From sequence record MT446416.1: a stretch of DNA of 64,000 nt. The stretch is one strand, 5' to 3'. Below the pieces are notes generated by a model that was not told the DNA's origin, did not search any database, and saw only the letters and a program-made list of their open reading frames with translations. Shown piece by piece: positions 4,371-50,826 of this stretch. The position numbers and the translations under genes are program-made. The DNA is from Escherichia virus TH47. Position 1 is the stretch's first letter. Each line of letters begins with the position of its first letter.

Positions 4371-7067
4371 TTACCAATTGATTGTTCCTGTTTGTGACGG
4401 TAGACCATAACTAACTGGGAATGAAGAACCAGCAGCTTCAAGCGACGCACCGAAAATATCCAATCTTGAACGTTTTTGTATGTTAACATTTGATATTTGT
4501 AGTGAGTTTGTTTGTATAGTACCTATCCAGAAAATATTATATGCTGTAGTACCAGTCTCTGAAATAACATCAGTTGTTATTACATATTTTGCATTACCTT
4601 GTTCCATTTTAACATATACATGAAATAATGTGTTTGCCGGATTAGCCTTAACTGTAGTTAAGTTTATACTAGTAATAGGTAATGTAAATGCTTTACCAGA
4701 AAGAATTACTGGAGTTTCTTCTGTGAAGTACACAATAAAACCTTGAGCAACGTCTTGTGAAACTACGTTAATCGGTGCACCTTGAGCAGTCCAGTTATTA
4801 TAATCAGCAATTGTAGTACCACATTTTTGGAAAGTCATTTTGTTTACATAGTCTATTGCTTGGAAATAACCAAAACCAATACCAGGTAAAGCTGCTGGTT
4901 GAATACCTTGCTCATAACTTGCATGTGAACCACTGATAATAAAACTATCAAATTGTGCAGTTGCTTTTGTTACATATGCTCTGAATTGGTGTGTGTTTGT
5001 ATTACCAATAGTTGGGTGAGATAATGGGTCAGAACCACCTATGAAGTAGAAAGAACCACCATCATATATTGTTAAACCAACAGAAGACGATGCAAAACTA
5101 CCATTACCATTTGGTGTAAAGTTACTTCCGTAAACGTTTTCTAGTACTAAACGCTTGAAGGTAATTGTAGTGATATTACCTGAACGTGTATTCACATTCA
5201 CTTCAGCAATTCTAATATAGTTCTGATATGTATTTGTAACTGTACTTAGCATTACGAATGCAGGTATATCAGTTTGTTGTGGAACAAACAATGTCATATC
5301 TTTATAAGCAGCAGGAGATAAGTTCCAGTCGCTTAGTACTTTAGCGTATTCAGCATTTCTGAAATTATCAAGTACTGATTGAGTAACACTAATGATACCA
5401 GTTCCGTTCATATTTTTATCATATGATAGTGATTGGGAATATCTCTGACCTACCATGAATATCCCACCATTTGTAGTAACATTATTACCACTAATGGAAC
5501 TAATAAAAACTCTGTTGTTAGTGTTATCTGTCACATTAGCACGTTCTGTTGTTGGCTCATAACCTTGTATGGTTCCACGTGATAAAGAATTAAACGTAAA
5601 GTTAGGAGTACTTTTATGAACTGCATAAGATGGACGGAATGCACCAGAACCAGTTGAACGAGAATACTGTTTAGTACTGTTCCCTGGAAGCAATTCTACT
5701 CCGTTAATAAAAGAACCAACTGCTGAACCAAATGAAGGACGGACTATACCATTTCTGAAATCAGTTGAAATGTTCGCACGTACATTGATCATGCTATATA
5801 TTGATTGCGAAGTAAATTTAGCTTTCTGCATAAGTAATGGTTCTGCTAAGTTTGGACATGCAGTACAGAATACATCACCTGTATTCAGATAATAATATGA
5901 ACTGTAAATATTTCTTGCACCGTTATGGTCATATAACGGATCTTTGTTGAGAACATTACCAGTAGCAACCAATGCCGAACCTGTGTTTGTGACAACCAAT
6001 GGTGCAGCAAATGTACCAATATCGTTCCCAGTATCCAAGTTACATTGTTTAGTACTCATGTTAAAATTGAAACTATAACTATGCTGTGGTCGGGTATTGT
6101 AGTTTGCCATAGTGAACCATGCGTCACCATTCATTCTGAATCGGAAGTTCTGCGTTCCTGGCTCCTGAGCAACATATAAATCGATAGATGTCATATAAAT
6201 CCCCATACCAGCCAAATTTTGTGGTACATAGACATAGGGCTTATCAGCTATATTAGTTGAGTTAACATGGTCAGTAATGATTATATTATTCTGAGAAGTA
6301 TATGTAGTATTGTAAAAAGTTTTTGTTGTCCACCCCGTGATTCGGGTAGCAGTATAAGTACCGTTTGCAATATTCAACACAACACGAACAACAACAATCT
6401 GTAGTTTGTTATTTTCATTAAGGACGTTGAATACATAAACTGAACCGTCTTCTGCCATCATAGCATACTCAATCCCACCTTCAGGTGAAATATCAGCTTG
6501 GTTCACAAAAAGACCACTATGTTGTGTATCATCCAATGTACCATTCGTTACTGATATAAACAACCCATTAGTACTGGTAGATGTGTCATTGTAACGACCT
6601 AACAGTATTTTTGAATCGGTATTGTATAAACCAATAGCAACACGGTTTGCCCCGAAATAGCCAGGCTTATACTGACGGCTTGTATTAACAGTACGACTCA
6701 TATCGGTAACTGATAATGCGTTCGCTAGGTAAGAATAAAACAAACCTTCAACACTACCGTTTGTACCACTACGTAATAGTACTAATGTGCCATCGTTTTC
6801 TAAAAGTATTTTGTTTCTACGTTGGGATTGGTTTTCTGATGCACCATTAAAATCACCAGATACCCCAGCAGGTAGATAGTTATGTGTACCATAATGCGAG
6901 ATTGGAAGTAAACTAATTACATCAAGTAATTCTTCTTTGGAATATGTATCAATTTCCATATTACCATTAGCATCAAATACTTGATCATTGATGCCCTGTA
7001 CTGTTCTTTTCCCTTTAACTGTCACATTATGAGTGACGTCTAAGCCACCATATATTTTCTTTGACAT
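4371..7067 (-). CDS. tail-fibre-like structural protein (paralog 1, 898 aa)
   Basis: Same N-terminal and C-terminal modules as 1025-3754; AAGGGA Shine-Dalgarno upstream of the ATG. Confidence 0.6.
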   Translation of the reverse strand: MSKKIYGGLDVTHNVTVKGKRTVQGINDQVFDANGNMEIDTYSKEELLDVISLLPISHYGTHNYLPAGVSGDFNGASENQSQRRNKILLENDGTLVLLRSGTNGSVEGLFYSYLANALSVTDMSRTVNTSRQYKPGYFGANRVAIGLYNTDSKILLGRYNDTSTSTNGLFISVTNGTLDDTQHSGLFVNQADISPEGGIEYAMMAEDGSVYVFNVLNENNKLQIVVVRVVLNIANGTYTATRITGWTTKTFYNTTYTSQNNIIITDHVNSTNIADKPYVYVPQNLAGMGIYMTSIDLYVAQEPGTQNFRFRMNGDAWFTMANYNTRPQHSYSFNFNMSTKQCNLDTGNDIGTFAAPLVVTNTGSALVATGNVLNKDPLYDHNGARNIYSSYYYLNTGDVFCTACPNLAEPLLMQKAKFTSQSIYSMINVRANISTDFRNGIVRPSFGSAVGSFINGVELLPGNSTKQYSRSTGSGAFRPSYAVHKSTPNFTFNSLSRGTIQGYEPTTERANVTDNTNNRVFISSISGNNVTTNGGIFMVGQRYSQSLSYDKNMNGTGIISVTQSVLDNFRNAEYAKVLSDWNLSPAAYKDMTLFVPQQTDIPAFVMLSTVTNTYQNYIRIAEVNVNTRSGNITTITFKRLVLENVYGSNFTPNGNGSFASSSVGLTIYDGGSFYFIGGSDPLSHPTIGNTNTHQFRAYVTKATAQFDSFIISGSHASYEQGIQPAALPGIGFGYFQAIDYVNKMTFQKCGTTIADYNNWTAQGAPINVVSQDVAQGFIVYFTEETPVILSGKAFTLPITSINLTTVKANPANTLFHVYVKMEQGNAKYVITTDVISETGTTAYNIFWIGTIQTNSLQISNVNIQKRSRLDIFGASLEAAGSSFPVSYGLPSQTGTINW

Positions 7068-7100
7068 ACATATCCCTTGTAATTTAGATATTAGTTACTG

Positions 7101-7108
7101 TATTTATG
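7101..7108 (-). promoter_or_regulatory. candidate T4-late-type promoter (CATAAATA on the minus strand)
   Basis: Minus-strand CATAAATA about 35 nt upstream of the first tail-fibre ATG, between the nrdG terminator and the fibre operon; T4 late consensus is TATAAATA. Confidence 0.3.
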
Positions 7109-7116
7109 AATGTACT

Positions 7117-7137
7117 AAAAAAGCACCCATTGGGTGC
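7117..7137 (-). terminator. rho-independent terminator
   Basis: GCACCC-ATT-GGGTGC hairpin followed on the minus strand by TTTTTT; 7 nt after the nrdG stop. Confidence 0.55.
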
Positions 7138-7143
7138 TTGTGT

Positions 7144-7614
7144 TTAAAAGTCTTTATTTTTATATAAAATTCGTTGGTTATTTGAACCACGAAAAGGTAA
7201 TGTTAAATTCTTTTCTTCTGAAACAAATTTACCATCAACTAATACATCTAAGTACTGAAGAATGTCTTTAGCATGATTATCCATAATCTCTTCTAACGTA
7301 TATCCACTCCAGCACCAAATAGTTTTATTGGGATAAGTCTCTTTTACAATCTTACATAGTTCTAAAATTGTTTCTATGTTCTTTTTCATTAGAGGATCTC
7401 CACCAAGGAGGGATAATCCACTAACGTAAGGCTTACTGAGTTCAGCTAAAATTATATCAATTGTATCAGTACTGAACTCTTGTCCACTTCGGTAGTCCCA
7501 TGCATGTTCTGAGTAACATCCGGGGCATCCATGTGAACAACCGCTTACGAAAAGTGAACATCTAACACCTTCACCATTTATCAAATCATCTTTGAAAATT
7601 GCCATATAATTCAT
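7144..7614 (-). CDS. nrdG: anaerobic ribonucleotide reductase activating protein (radical SAM)
   Basis: N-terminal CSHGCPGCYS cysteine cluster (CxxxCxxC-type radical SAM motif); about 156 aa; adjacent to nrdD and grcA; ATGA start/stop overlap with the upstream gene. Confidence 0.85.
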   Translation of the reverse strand: MNYMAIFKDDLINGEGVRCSLFVSGCSHGCPGCYSEHAWDYRSGQEFSTDTIDIILAELSKPYVSGLSLLGGDPLMKKNIETILELCKIVKETYPNKTIWCWSGYTLEEIMDNHAKDILQYLDVLVDGKFVSEEKNLTLPFRGSNNQRILYKNKDF

Positions 7615-8597
7615 TTAATATTCCTTACTAGGTTATTTAAAATCTCCACATGGTTTTCATCATAACGTATTCTGATAAACTGTATATTATTGTCTATACA
7701 GAACTTTGTTTTTATATTGTCATTAATTTGTCTATTAATAAATTCTTTCTCCCCTCCCCAATGTTCAAAAATTTCATAATGTTGTTTACCATCATATTCT
7801 ATTAATATATTATAATCATTCAAATATATGTCAAATGGTAATTTTTGTTTGTTGTAACATTCAGGGAATTTTTTTTCTCGTTCAAAAGATATATTATTTT
7901 TTGTCAATATTTCAATTATATCATACATAGCTTTTGATGTGCTAGTATGTAACGCACACTCTGGGCATCCTCTTCCTGAGTTTAATGATGTTGGTGTAAT
8001 ATTAAATTCATGACCTTTTTCACAAATTGCAATACTAGGAGTTCTTACATTTATATATTTGAATTTATTAAAATTGTAATCTTTGAATTTATTATTTGAT
8101 TTTATTTTTGATATAAAATAATCTGAATCAATATTATGTTTTCTCCCATTTTTCATTTTACAAAGTTCACATCCAGTATTTCCTCTCAAGAAGGTTCTTG
8201 CTCTCAATGTTTTGGATTTTTTATGGATATTACACATAACTGTTATATTATCAACCATGCGAGTATAATCACTGATTAGTGTGAATTTATCTCCATAAAT
8301 TTTATTCATTTCTTGTATGAATTCATATTTTGATTTTGTTATTTTATTATCAGAACATTTTTTACAGCCCTTCCCACTTAAAAGTATATTTGGTGTTGAA
8401 TAAAAATCCGTTTTACATATGTTACAGTGGACATGTATTTTACATTGTGACCCGCCGTATTCATTTAAAAATGTGAATTTTTGTCCATGTATTAACAAAA
8501 TCTTATTAATGAATTCTTCATGTGTAAGTTTACGTGGCATTATTAAAACTCCTTTGACATTTGTGATGTTTATAAATGCCAAAGGGTATATCCTCAT
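7611..8597 (-). CDS. putative free-standing homing-endonuclease-like protein (zinc-ribbon repeats plus C-terminal DUF559/Vsr-like nuclease motif)
   Basis: Three L-x-x-G-x-G-C-x-x-C repeats and a C-terminal ...ILIEYDGKQHYE... motif; more AT-rich than its neighbours and contains no AGTACT. Confidence 0.45.
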   Translation of the reverse strand: MRIYPLAFINITNVKGVLIMPRKLTHEEFINKILLIHGQKFTFLNEYGGSQCKIHVHCNICKTDFYSTPNILLSGKGCKKCSDNKITKSKYEFIQEMNKIYGDKFTLISDYTRMVDNITVMCNIHKKSKTLRARTFLRGNTGCELCKMKNGRKHNIDSDYFISKIKSNNKFKDYNFNKFKYINVRTPSIAICEKGHEFNITPTSLNSGRGCPECALHTSTSKAMYDIIEILTKNNISFEREKKFPECYNKQKLPFDIYLNDYNILIEYDGKQHYEIFEHWGGEKEFINRQINDNIKTKFCIDNNIQFIRIRYDENHVEILNNLVRNIK

Positions 8598-8927
8598 TTA
8601 ATTATCGTCTGGTAATTCATCTAGTATTGCACTCACTATTTCAACGAGAACATCACCATGACATGATTTTGGTTTACAGAAACAACCAAGACGTTTCCCT
8701 GCTAATTCAAGTAAATCATCAATTTTAACTTCGCCATTAGAAATACGTTCAATTATGTATTCTCTGAACTTTTCGATTGATTCTTCCCTTGTAGCAACAA
8801 TGAACTCGGCCTTAGTCTGTTTATCATTGATATGGGTAAATGGGTTACCCCATTTAGACCCACGACCAATGTACACATCATACGGTTCTTTGTATTTGTT
8901 AACCACAATTGGCTTTAAATCCATCAA
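8598..8927 (-). CDS. DUF4326-family protein
   Basis: [12 protein letters not shown] ... [13 protein letters not shown] signature. Confidence 0.6.
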
Positions 8928-19062: not shown

Positions 19063-19128
19063 GAGTATTTCTCCTTTGTTGTTAACAATATTATTATATC
19101 ATGTATGGGACGAATGTCCCACACATTA

Positions 19129-48736: not shown

Positions 48737-49282
48737 TTATAGACAGTTAAGTACTATGTCATCAAAAGTACTACTGTCAATGTTGTATTCATATAAAAAT
48801 TTAAAATGTGATCCATAACGCATCATCAGATTAAACTCTTCTTCAGTATTAAATTTGTAATCATGAAGAGTTTCAAGGGTACATGTTAAACCTAAAAACT
48901 CAATAATTTCTGATGTTACATCATTTCCTGAATTGAAGTATTTAACCCAAACACATTTTCCTTGTGGGTTGAATTTTCTATATTCTCCTTCTAGTTCTCC
49001 ATTGACGATATGTGCTTTCGCACTGATTAGATTATTACTATAACGCTCTTCGTAGTAGTTCCCATAACGAGCTTTAAGAATTGTAGGCTTCTTGGTTGGG
49101 AATAACTTAATGGAAGTTAATTCAAAACCGCACTGCAACTCTTTGATGTACGAAATACATCCCTTTTCTTTAATCACAACAAAACCAGTAAAATTCTCCT
49201 GGTCTTGGTTCTGATTGTCTGAATCAACAAATTCTAGTGTTTTATAAGTGACGCTTTTAGATTTTTTAATAAATGACATCAT
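48737..49282 (-). CDS. FQ-motif family member (degenerate motif TEEEFNLMMRY)
   Basis: Start moved to the ATG pair at 49277-49282 with AGGA Shine-Dalgarno; the track start at 49369 is TTG. Confidence 0.45.
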   Translation of the reverse strand: MMSFIKKSKSVTYKTLEFVDSDNQNQDQENFTGFVVIKEKGCISYIKELQCGFELTSIKLFPTKKPTILKARYGNYYEERYSNNLISAKAHIVNGELEGEYRKFNPQGKCVWVKYFNSGNDVTSEIIEFLGLTCTLETLHDYKFNTEEEFNLMMRYGSHFKFLYEYNIDSSTFDDIVLNCL

Positions 49283-49962
49283 TATTCCTATGGAAACATC
49301 AATGACTGTCCATGGCGTTGACTTCATCAACACCAGTCGAATTATACACGCTTCGCATGTATAATTCAACGAAAGTACTATGATTTGTTTTAATTAATAT
49401 TGACGGGGTTTGCTTGAGCATATTTCATCCCCCCGCAGGGGAAAGAACAAAAAAGTTTGACGCTGGTGGCCTTCACATAGTTCATATCACGAATTCTCTT
49501 ACGAGGCGAAAGCGGGTTGCTCTGTTTCTCTCTATCGCGGTTCTTGTAGCAACGGTCGTCGGTCTTAAACATCCCGACACATAATACAAATACCATATGA
49601 CCAGTACTTGTATTTGATTTCACGAATTTTGGACGCAACTATTTTGTATAAATTACGACCGCAAATTTCTCATGAAATCTCCCTTAGATAATTGGTAAGG
49701 TGCGATCCTTATATGTCTATCGAGGAACTCTCTTTATCCTATTGGAGTTCTTTATACAGCCGCATTGCCGTGAGTGGTTCAAACTATGCCATCATCTAAC
49801 GGGTTTCATTTGCTGTTCGTACTGAAAGGACTACTCATCTACCCTCTACTTTTCGAGTGGATTAGGCTTCAATCATTTCCATATGGAACCTTTCAGGATT
49901 AAAAAAAGGTGACAACATATTCTGCTGTCACCTTACATTATATCATAAACTTATGGTATGTC
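49283..49962 (-). other. ORF-free, GC-richer intergenic island of about 680 bp (candidate structured RNA, regulatory or origin region)
   Basis: No ATG-initiated ORF with a Shine-Dalgarno on either strand; local GC about 40-55 percent versus about one-third elsewhere; palindrome TTCCATATGGAA at 49877-49888; CCCCGCAGGGG hairpin; no tRNA T-loop found. Confidence 0.3.
49901..49932 (-). terminator. rho-independent terminator
   Basis: GGTGACA / TGTCACC 7-bp stem followed on the minus strand by TTTTTTT; 30 nt after the stop of the 49963-50826 gene. Confidence 0.6.
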
Positions 49963-50826
49963 TCAGTTGTATTCTGTTTTTTCAGTGAAATTCGTTAAGA
50001 TATCTGCACTTAAGCTTCTCATAACCTCAATCTTACTTGGCATGAACCTGTGCTTGTTTTTTACATACAACTCATCATCTTCAATGAAAGATGTGAACAT
50101 GAATACCATATCTTCACGTGGAATTGAGAGAATATTACAGTTTTCATTTTCAGTAACAGGGGAATCCCCGTAGTACTTAGAGAATGCAGTACTTTGACGA
50201 CCGATTATGATAGAATTTCGGATTAGAAAATTACTACAGTACTGAAAATCTTTGTAGTACTTGTCAAGGATATATGGCATTATCGCTTCTTTCACTTCTT
50301 CATATCCATTTGAACTATCAATTTCAGTACAATAATCTTCTCGGTCTTTTTTCCCTCGATGATTATCAAACTCGTACTCAAAGAATAAATTTTTATTTGA
50401 TGAATCTGAATCATTTAAACCAACTGATCCACTATAGTATGAATTTCGTGAATTTCTATCCTTCATTCGATCATCCGGGCATGATGCATACATAGAAATG
50501 TCATGTGTTGACGTACCGATATAAATTTTCTTAGTAATGTGATTGTACGCGATGTAATCATAATCTTGTACTCCAGTGAGCATTAACTGGAACATCAATT
50601 CATCAGGAACATCAATTAACGGGTACTCAAACTTCGAATATCTACTACGACAGAAATTCTTTTCAAATGCTCGGTGTGCGATGAAATCTTTTAGATTTGT
50701 AATAGATTCATGCTCATGTGTATTACTGGTGCGTACATTGACATTAGTAGACGAGCAATACCCTTCAGATTCTTCTGCGTAGACATAAAAACCCTTACTG
50801 TAGTCAACGATTAGATAAAGTTTCAT
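49963..50826 (-). CDS. FQ-motif family member (287 aa)
   Basis: PDELMFQLMLTG motif. Confidence 0.55.
   Translation of the reverse strand: MKLYLIVDYSKGFYVYAEESEGYCSSTNVNVRTSNTHEHESITNLKDFIAHRAFEKNFCRSRYSKFEYPLIDVPDELMFQLMLTGVQDYDYIAYNHITKKIYIGTSTHDISMYASCPDDRMKDRNSRNSYYSGSVGLNDSDSSNKNLFFEYEFDNHRGKKDREDYCTEIDSSNGYEEVKEAIMPYILDKYYKDFQYCSNFLIRNSIIIGRQSTAFSKYYGDSPVTENENCNILSIPREDMVFMFTSFIEDDELYVKNKHRFMPSKIEVMRSLSADILTNFTEKTEYN

Follow-up and report, generated by a model that had tools for sequence, protein, structure and literature searches.

Within 64,000 nucleotides of the genome of Escherichia virus TH47 (sequence record MT446416.1; the whole stretch is called the window below), a gap at positions 49279 to 49963 very probably harbours a stand-alone gene whose structured RNA belongs to a new family. 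The gene is predicted to be self-contained, to run on the minus strand from ~49965 to ~49390 and to give a transcript of ~0.5 kb. In the reading favoured here, with a probability of about 0.6, it is an independently transcribed gene for a non-coding RNA of ~0.5 kb that represents a new family and acts in trans as a folded molecule. For the trans-acting mode of action taken alone, comparison of the sequences tips the balance slightly in favour. A structured RNA had already been the leading guess of the initial annotation, which was made from the letters of the window, and this guess is supported by covariation across 32 homologues, by a dedicated promoter and by the lack of a conserved frame.

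Homologues were gathered by motif scans of viral, metagenomic and genomic collections together with an nhmmer profile, which gave 62 hits including duplicate loci, and covariation was evaluated on 32 full-length sequences of less than 97% identity that fall into about seven sequence classes. RNAalifold, run on 21 sequences, proposed 67 pairs, and compensatory double changes were seen in 36 of these. The final structure was obtained by a covariation scan and hand curation; it has 102 pairs, counted on the 32 sequences, and consists of at least 15 helices and three pseudoknots. Standard pairs were found in 89.3% of its cells, compared with 39–43% in a slid control in which pairing partners were moved by 1–3 columns, and double-sided changes occurred at 67 of the 102 pairs (23–37 in the slid control), with a covariation score of 0.396 (0.07–0.09). 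Column shuffles matched the observed value in none of 500 cases for four of five measures and in one of 500 for the fifth, the further standard pair types. The same picture was obtained when the 3' half was recounted with the sequence of phage K64-1 added, and all three pseudoknots covary. In a test of the sense strand, 89.3% of cells were paired on the minus strand vs 83.8% on the antisense, with 225 G-U cells; because the G-U pairs and the direction of the promoter agree, the minus strand is taken as the sense strand. The alignment indicates that the RNA is under strong purifying selection on its fold.

No conserved reading frame and no third-position bias were found across the 32 homologues. 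Their longest open frames differ in strand, frame and position, the column variability by codon position is flat (0.228/0.225/0.236), and indels between conserved blocks are not multiples of three. The open reading frame (ORF) with a TTG start at 49390–49638, the only one singled out in the gap by the initial annotation, is present and codes for 82 amino acids (aa). A small peptide starting at GGGGGGAUG was also considered and rejected, as indels shift its frame between paralogues. Tiny ORFs of 23–70 aa lie over the RNA genes in the GenBank records of K64-1 (1162–1817 of the locus examined), fHe-Yen9-04 (g047/g048 and g347/g348) and several Asteriusviruses. Since there is no conserved frame, codon-position variability is flat and indels are not in triplets, these hypothetical ORFs annotated across RNA genes are very likely annotation artefacts.

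The source of the window is an Asteriusvirus-like jumbo coliphage (121Q/PBECO4/Turkey3) and belongs to the Rak2-like jumbo myoviruses with genomes of 350–380 kb; the window shares 99.8% identity with Escherichia phage Turkey3 and 92–99% with 121Q, PBECO4 and their relatives. Genes around the RNA locus lie on the minus strand. A 287-aa gene stops at 49963 and the following gene starts at 49279; between them only scattered short ORFs occur, in line with the earlier description of the gap as lacking a convincing ORF, and none of them is conserved in homologues. The equivalent gap of Turkey3 measures 683 bp and is unannotated. The raised local GC content noticed earlier was found again (0.40–0.465 in 200-nt windows vs 0.30–0.36 in the flanks), and the sequence features listed at that time turned out to be parts of the RNA gene or of its surroundings: the 12-nt palindrome at 49877–49888 (TTCCATATGGAA) is hairpin P1, the hairpin CCCC-GCAG-GGGG at ~49430–49441 is helix P15, the inverted repeat of CTGAAAGG (49823–49830) and CCTTTCAG (49890–49897) corresponds to pseudoknot PK1, formed by CCTGAAAGG/CCTTTCAG, and the preceding terminator is a terminator-like hairpin with a T-run at 49934–49906 on the minus strand. 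Homologues from other phage genera conserve each of these four features or show covariation in it, and for this reason they exceed what would be expected by chance. Searches for a conserved protein frame and for conservation in relatives, the two points on which the idea of an RNA could have failed, both came out in its favour. Other proposals of the initial annotation did not hold. The flanking proteins, described as two family members, have no BLASTP similarity (E = 0.8 and 4.0), a decayed gene finds no coding signal in the homologues, and a host-derived fragment is at odds with the finding that E. coli was matched only through intact copies of this RNA in a rare island.

Transcription of the RNA is predicted to depend on a promoter of its own. 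The elements around both ends of the gene are as follows.

49960 to 49965, minus strand: −35-like element TGAGAC, consensus TG(A/G)(A/G)AC, 17 nt upstream of the −10 element, found in most of the 32 homologues with the same spacing.
49937 to 49945, minus strand: extended −10 element TGATATAAT, of the form TGnTATAAT, which precedes all phage copies at a constant distance.
49899 to 49934, minus strand: terminator-like hairpin with a 12-pair stem followed by a T-run; the stem covaries in classes c1 and c2.
49341 to 49369, minus strand: sigma-70-type promoter of the downstream 180-aa gene (TTGAAT, 17 nt, TATAAT), outside the RNA.

The distance of 17 nt separates TG(A/G)(A/G)AC from the TATAAT hexamer, and the transcription start is inferred to lie at ~49928–49931. 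In the whole window, five promoters of the type TG(A/G)(A/G)AC-N16-18-TATAAT were found compared with 0.39 expected, all of them on the minus (coding) strand and starting at 19121, 31440, 34921, 39035 and 49965, and TGnTATAAT alone occurs 19 times vs ~9 expected. The RNA promoter corresponds to a promoter class known from phages CBB and GAP32, where 'divergent RpoD-like' TGAAACG promoters are mostly found before DNA-synthesis genes (PMC5259590). It lies (49965–49937) directly after the stop codon of the upstream 287-aa gene and just before the terminator hairpin of that gene, which is presumably terminated by the hairpin at 49899–49934. In classes c1 and c2, as in the window copy, the promoter therefore precedes a terminator hairpin, and transcripts would start inside its 5' arm or at its base. 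This hairpin is restricted to the locus-A classes c1 and c2, the same arrangement is seen in other genera, and a terminator is annotated at the equivalent site in the record of GAP32. In the classes other than c1 and c2, a weak terminator-like hairpin with U7 is inserted in the linker between helices P14 and P15; the window copy is without an internal terminator. The 180-aa gene downstream has its own promoter, as TTGAAT, a spacer of 17 nt and TATAAT are found at 49341–49369; this promoter overlaps a 10-bp hairpin, GAAUUAUACA...UGUAUAAUUC, with the −10 element within the 3' arm of the stem. The 180-aa protein itself looks MORN/YwqK-repeat-like by eye.

The curated structure is listed here from the 5' to the 3' end of the RNA; P denotes helices and PK pseudoknots.

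49822 to 49896, minus strand: 5' domain with PK1, P1, P3, the invariant GAUGAG and P2.
49889–49896 with 49822–49829, minus strand: PK1, seven of eight pairs with double changes.
49877–49888, minus strand: hairpin P1, the 12-nt palindrome.
49839–49865, minus strand: hairpin P3 with a conserved GAAAA(N)GUA loop, seven of eight pairs with double changes.
49832–49834 with 49819–49821, minus strand: P2, which crosses PK1, 100% paired, with three pair types at the middle pair.
49756 to 49816, minus strand: P4 (ACAGC/GCUGU) enclosing P5 (CCGU/ACGG), including the invariant CACGGCAAUGCGGC; 99–100% paired, with three covarying pairs in P4.
49725 to 49750, minus strand: hairpin P6, variable in sequence and conserved in shape, six of six pairs with double changes and up to four pair types per pair.
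49679 to 49721, minus strand: invariant joiner GAUAGACAUAU, hairpin P7 (49696–49711) and invariant single-stranded UAAGGGAG; the bacterial copies keep the invariant columns too.
49617 to 49678, minus strand: optional P8 domain with the module UACAAnAUAG(A/U)UnCGUC(Y)AAAAUU; P8 is poorly aligned and 51% paired.
49583 to 49614, minus strand: hairpin P9, 10 of 11 pairs with double changes.
49595–49600 (P9 loop) with 49482–49487, minus strand: PK2, 97% paired, five of six pairs with double changes.
49455 to 49582, minus strand: most conserved core with P10, ACGACCGUUGC, PK3, P11, P12, P13 and the tentative P14.
49549–49553 (GUUGC, in ACGACCGUUGC) with 49516–49520 (GCAAC, in the P12 loop), minus strand: PK3, 100% paired, with the variants GUUAC/GUAAC and GUUGU/ACAAC.
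49535–49539 with 49488–49492, minus strand: P11, 99–100% paired.
49508–49532, minus strand: P12, GAUAGAGAGAAAC...AACCCGCUU, 99–100% paired.
49496–49505, minus strand: P13 with a GUAA loop, part of the core.
49459–49474, minus strand: P14, tentative, 38% paired and unsupported in the alignment register used.
49428 to 49454, minus strand: U-rich linker, then GC-rich P15 (CCCC-UGCG-GGGGGG; the CCCCGCAGGGG hairpin), 94% paired, with one-sided G-C/G-U changes only.
49390 to 49427, minus strand: 3' conserved block ending in CAAACCCCGUCAA (49400–49412); cross-genus conservation stops at ~49377–49390.

Single-stranded segments that are invariant even in the most distant members are GAUGAG, CACGGCAAUGCGGC, GAUAGACAUAU, UAAGGGAG, ACGACCGUU, GAUAGAGAGAAAC and AACCCGCUU, and the P15 motif is unique in the window. 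Inside P5, the internal module comes in two alternative forms that replace one another across the family. A further module of ~25 nt sits either in the P8 domain or inserted in P13, in a near-complementary pattern across the classes; some members hold both placements and one class neither. Grafting of peripheral elements is typical of RNAs with a shape-dependent function such as RNase P and group I introns. From the relocatable modules and the invariant joiners, a function that depends on three-dimensional shape is inferred. Two other structural proposals were considered and rejected: a 'closing helix' GAUG/CGUC between GAUGAG and the 3' block, suggested by RNAalifold, shows no covariation and has mismatches in the window copy, and a hammerhead-like reading of CAGAUGAG...GAA fails because its 'GAA' is not kept in the alignment.

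The RNA is widespread in jumbo phages. By BLASTN against 50,697 phage records, the gap was matched in 61 records (61–70 depending on the query), at four to five places per genome that are mostly unannotated, and use of a second paralogue as the query added the K64-1 group. Beyond close relatives, only the central ~480 bp (49390–49872) are kept, at ~70% identity, among others in Cronobacter phage GAP32, Pectobacterium phage CBB, Serratia phage BF and Yersinia phage fHe-Yen9-04 and in Erwinia, Xanthomonas, Salmonella and Klebsiella jumbo phages. In a syntenic comparison over 7 kb with GAP32 and BF, the RNA stretch was the strongest nucleotide match, with 204 bits vs at most 84 for coding neighbours. 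Three copies per genome were verified at syntenic loci by covariance model and nhmmer in Asterius-, Mimas- and Eneladusviruses; for the Alcyoneusvirus K64-1, one diverged full-length copy (locus A) was verified, and BLAST gave two places. The loci and the positions of copies are as follows.

Locus A, that of the window: the RNA precedes a hypothetical gene and the genes for a Dam-like methyltransferase and a cytidylyltransferase.
Locus B: adjoining endonuclease VII, the gp46/47 recombination nuclease, a late sigma factor and a baseplate hub gene.
Locus C: a third locus, within a co-directional gene run.
GAP32: copies at 35, 177 and 261 kb.
fHe-Yen9-04: copies at 24.5, 174.5 and 260.5 kb.
121Q: copies at 193, 247.5 and 326.6 kb.

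At locus B, the copies of CBB, 121Q and one metagenomic contig are antisense to both neighbours. A covariance model of the core with 123 positions (R1) gave 102 bits (E = 3e-20) at the RNA core as its sole hit in the window, and neither BLASTN nor a repeat finder nor the covariance model detected further copies within the 64 kb; a paralogue was also not found in the first 50 kb of Turkey3. From the comparison of classes, peripheral modules appear to be swapped or relocated between paralogues that are kept at fixed loci in the Rak2-like jumbo phages.

Copies were also found in bacterial genomes. A near-perfect full-length copy (432 bits) is present in two of 5,426 complete E. coli genomes. In E. 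coli LR-29-1 it lies at 6950–7615 of a locus (NZ_AP027515.1, 3472118–3486555) where an integrative island of ~10 kb lies between ffs and ybaA. This island contains a tyrosine integrase disrupted by IS3, PDC-M45 (DuOB, DUF488, mSLOG/DUF4326), PDC-S16 (DUF2188), a resolvase and several unknown proteins, and PDC-M45 and PDC-S16 are candidate defence systems. The RNA sits within a 1.4-kb unannotated gap of the island, where ~680 bp after the RNA are unexplained. In Serratia sp. 2723, a copy at the border of an inserted element comes directly after a large serine recombinase, and in an Enterobacteriaceae metagenome-assembled genome a copy lies between chromosomal thiMD, with its thiamine pyrophosphate (TPP) riboswitch, and a CI-like repressor. 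No copy was detected in the plasmids searched. No neighbouring protein is common to the bacterial and phage contexts, and the sole cross-hit was an unrelated DUF4326 domain. This domain belongs to the ORF at 8619–8927 (minus strand) of the window, which is DUF4326-like and shares 41% identity across 106 aa with the mSLOG/DUF4326 protein of PDC-M45 in the E. coli island that carries the RNA.

Known RNA families were searched with Rfam 15 (4,227 families). At the gathering score, no family was hit anywhere in the 64 kb, although the earlier text, in looking for a second group I intron, presupposes another one in the window. At permissive E-values, no credible family emerged for the region (E ≤ 10), for seven other members and two controls from phage PA5oct (E ≤ 5) or for two bacterial loci; the hits obtained were at chance level (DapZ, small nucleolar RNAs and Hatchet, E = 2–8), apart from the unrelated TPP riboswitch beside one bacterial copy. 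ARAGORN detected no transfer RNA (tRNA) or transfer-messenger RNA (tmRNA) genes in the window and 40 loci, and these results agree with the earlier failure to see tRNA or group I intron signatures. Full-text searches of a library of papers returned no description of this RNA family. On this evidence, the RNA appears to belong to a previously undescribed family.

In the favoured reading, the phage-specific promoter (TGRRAC, 17 nt, TGnTATAAT) would drive the RNA alongside DNA-metabolism genes of the same promoter class. The RNA, folded into at least 15 helices that are tied by three pseudoknots and linked by long invariant single-stranded joiners, would work in trans as the scaffold of a ribonucleoprotein or as a ribozyme and not as a leader of neighbouring genes. 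Its partner would be supplied by the enterobacterial host or by another (infecting) phage, because intact copies stand alone in bacterial islands without a shared neighbouring protein. A further proposal, put forward tentatively and at slightly less than even odds, is a new class of large triple-pseudoknotted RNAs, as complex as known ribozymes or the RNA-only assemblies GOLLD and ROOL, that is kept as three to five specialised paralogues in Rak2-like jumbo phages, has been exchanged with enterobacterial islands bearing candidate defence genes and has its own activity in genome replication or in conflict between phage and host. Candidates for this activity would be catalysis, the build-up of a larger RNA particle or the binding of a factor from host or phage.

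Several points weigh against a trans-acting RNA with its own promoter. The sequences point to no partner, substrate or chemistry, and the start site and the 3' end are predictions. The terminator-like hairpin that follows the promoter of the window copy might abort transcripts of the RNA, and in several classes another terminator-like hairpin with a U-run lies ~50 nt before the 3' block, so that P15 and the 3' motif may fall outside the mature RNA. P8, P14 and the 3' block are without covariation support, and the z-score of the minimum free energy of the single sequence is only −1.8. Furthermore, the dispersed copies, the DNA-synthesis promoter class and a G-run beside AT-rich DNA would suit priming at an origin equally well.

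The main rival explanation, which is considered unlikely, is an RNA of replication origins, the promoter-driven transcript of which would form a persistent RNA-DNA hybrid (R-loop) and prime leading-strand synthesis while its fold controls the hybrid at the G-rich 3' block beside AT-rich DNA. It would explain why three verified copies (four to five by BLAST) are dispersed around genomes of ~350 kb, as phage T4 also has at least five origins (PMC3016281), and why a sigma-70-type −10 element is combined with a phage-specific −35 element that in CBB mostly precedes DNA-synthesis genes, in parallel to the MotA-type middle promoters of oriF and oriG. Locus B lies among genes for gp46/47, endonuclease VII and a late sigma factor, where transcription switches strand, AT-rich sequence follows the invariant C4/G6 hairpin (the genome has ~35% GC), and an island copy could permit amplification of the island by an infecting jumbo phage. 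However, T4 origins need only a promoter and an unwinding element and no specific fold (PMC3016281), and three covarying pseudoknots, invariant joiners and relocated modules exceed the needs of a primer. The window also contains no iterons or direct repeats, the cumulative GC skew does not turn at the locus, and loci A and C are found inside co-directional gene runs. A conflict RNA, which is a version of the trans-acting reading, is similarly doubtful; it would act in conflict between phage and host or between phages, for instance as a decoy for a defence that senses RNA, as an inhibitor of such a defence or as the RNA component of an exclusion system. Such a role might be plausible for intact copies in the E. 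coli island by ffs with its candidate systems PDC-M45 and PDC-S16, and the positions in Serratia sp. 2723 (after the serine recombinase) and in the metagenome-assembled genome (thiMD/CI-like repressor) are typical of accessory or defence cargo. This is guilt by association from three loci, however, which share no common protein, and the RNA occurs in only two of the 5,426 complete E. coli genomes and in no plasmid. Paralogues fixed at the same loci across genera also resemble core functions and not arms-race cargo.

A cis-acting leader, riboswitch or attenuator of the 180-aa gene, the Dam-like methyltransferase and the cytidylyltransferase, in line with the regulatory region suggested as an alternative by the initial annotation, is very improbable. 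In several genera, the locus-A copy precedes this gene set and is read in the same direction, and the terminator-like hairpin with a U-run of some classes could be an expression platform. Against this, the copies at locus B are antisense to both neighbours and have no co-directional gene downstream, so a general role as leader or riboswitch was rejected; moreover, downstream genes vary by locus, the neighbours of the bacterial copies are unrelated, and in the window the downstream gene has its own promoter and the RNA no internal terminator. There is hardly any room for a disguised member of a known RNA class (group I or II intron, RNase P, tmRNA or tRNA-like, GOLLD, ROOL, OLE, HEARO) or for a decayed or unrecognised protein gene. 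Short word matches to the T4 td intron and E. coli RNase P RNA, seen by eye, were leads only, and none of these families was found in the window copy or nine other members (E ≤ 10, 5 or 1), in addition to the missing gathering-score hits in the window and the empty ARAGORN result. A group I intron was rejected as there is no Intron_gpI hit, a P7-like UAGA/UCUA pairing is not kept in the alignment, and the RNA has its own promoter, follows a terminator and lies between complete unrelated genes, interrupting none. For RNase P RNA, no family was obtained at E ≤ 10 and the word similarities are not collinear, and membership in GOLLD, ROOL, OLE, raiA or HEARO was dismissed for want of a covariance-model hit. 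The 82-aa ORF of the window copy and the tiny ORFs annotated in several GenBank records would speak for a protein gene, intact or decayed, which was rejected in view of the missing conserved frame and codon periodicity.

RNAs of ~0.5 kb with intricate, deeply conserved folds are rare. The large classes that are understood, namely ribosomal RNA, RNase P, self-splicing introns and tmRNA, each revealed a basic mechanism, and the unexplained large RNAs OLE, GOLLD, ROOL and raiA are active research targets. The trans-acting RNA proposed here occurs in jumbo phages of cultivable E. coli, Salmonella, Klebsiella, Cronobacter, Serratia, Erwinia and Yersinia and thus offers a tractable system, in which the natural series of paralogues and the module swaps map the fold and the chromosomal copy of E. 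coli makes a stand-alone function testable. If it were an origin RNA, it would give a first handle on the start of replication in the ~350-kb Rak2-like genomes, and a role in conflict would make it a protein-free agent of defence or counter-defence. In any case, the spurious tiny ORFs over RNA genes in GenBank records can be corrected.

Among known systems, large ribozymes such as group I introns and RNase P RNA are similar in size, long-range pseudoknots, invariant purine-rich joiners and graftable peripheral modules; they differ in that the RNA described here matches none of their models, is not flanked by exons and has neither a tRNA-related setting nor a recognised catalytic core. ColE1 RNA II is a folded primer of ~550 nt whose fold matters, and it is comparable in length and in the G-run near the 3' end. 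A likeness to oriF and oriG of T4 is seen in a promoter-driven transcript at few dispersed sites and in a host-type −10 element combined with a phage-specific upstream element. The oriF and oriG sites consist of a middle promoter and an unwinding element, and their transcript forms the primer R-loop; the at least five origins of T4 have no sequence motif in common and require no defined RNA fold (PMC3016281), unlike the deeply conserved pseudoknotted fold found here. In phage PA5oct, which was described as related to 121Q, PBECO4, RaK2 and GAP32, the long non-coding RNAs ncRNA001–004 were defined by RNA sequencing (PMC7318152), and they resemble the present RNA in lying in ORF-free regions (0.24–0.62 kb in PA5oct, actively transcribed, four per genome). 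Homology to them is unsupported, as R1 gave no match at E ≤ 1; by nhmmer, ncRNA004 showed one short match (E = 0.008, 872–919) and two non-significant collinear ones (E ~5). At the 3' end of ncRNA004, a hairpin of the form UUCC...CCC-loop-GGGG...GGAA resembles P15. Like GOLLD, ROOL, OLE and raiA, the RNA spans several hundred nucleotides with many helices, pseudoknots and conserved joiners and has a biochemical function that is unexplained. Like GOLLD and ROOL, which fold into RNA-only assemblies (PMC12286853), it is carried by phages or mobile elements, a likeness and not homology. Unlike GOLLD and ROOL, it has no tRNA genes nearby, its hosts are Enterobacteria, Xanthomonas and jumbo myoviruses in place of Lactobacillales or rumen taxa, and several diverged paralogues are found in each genome.

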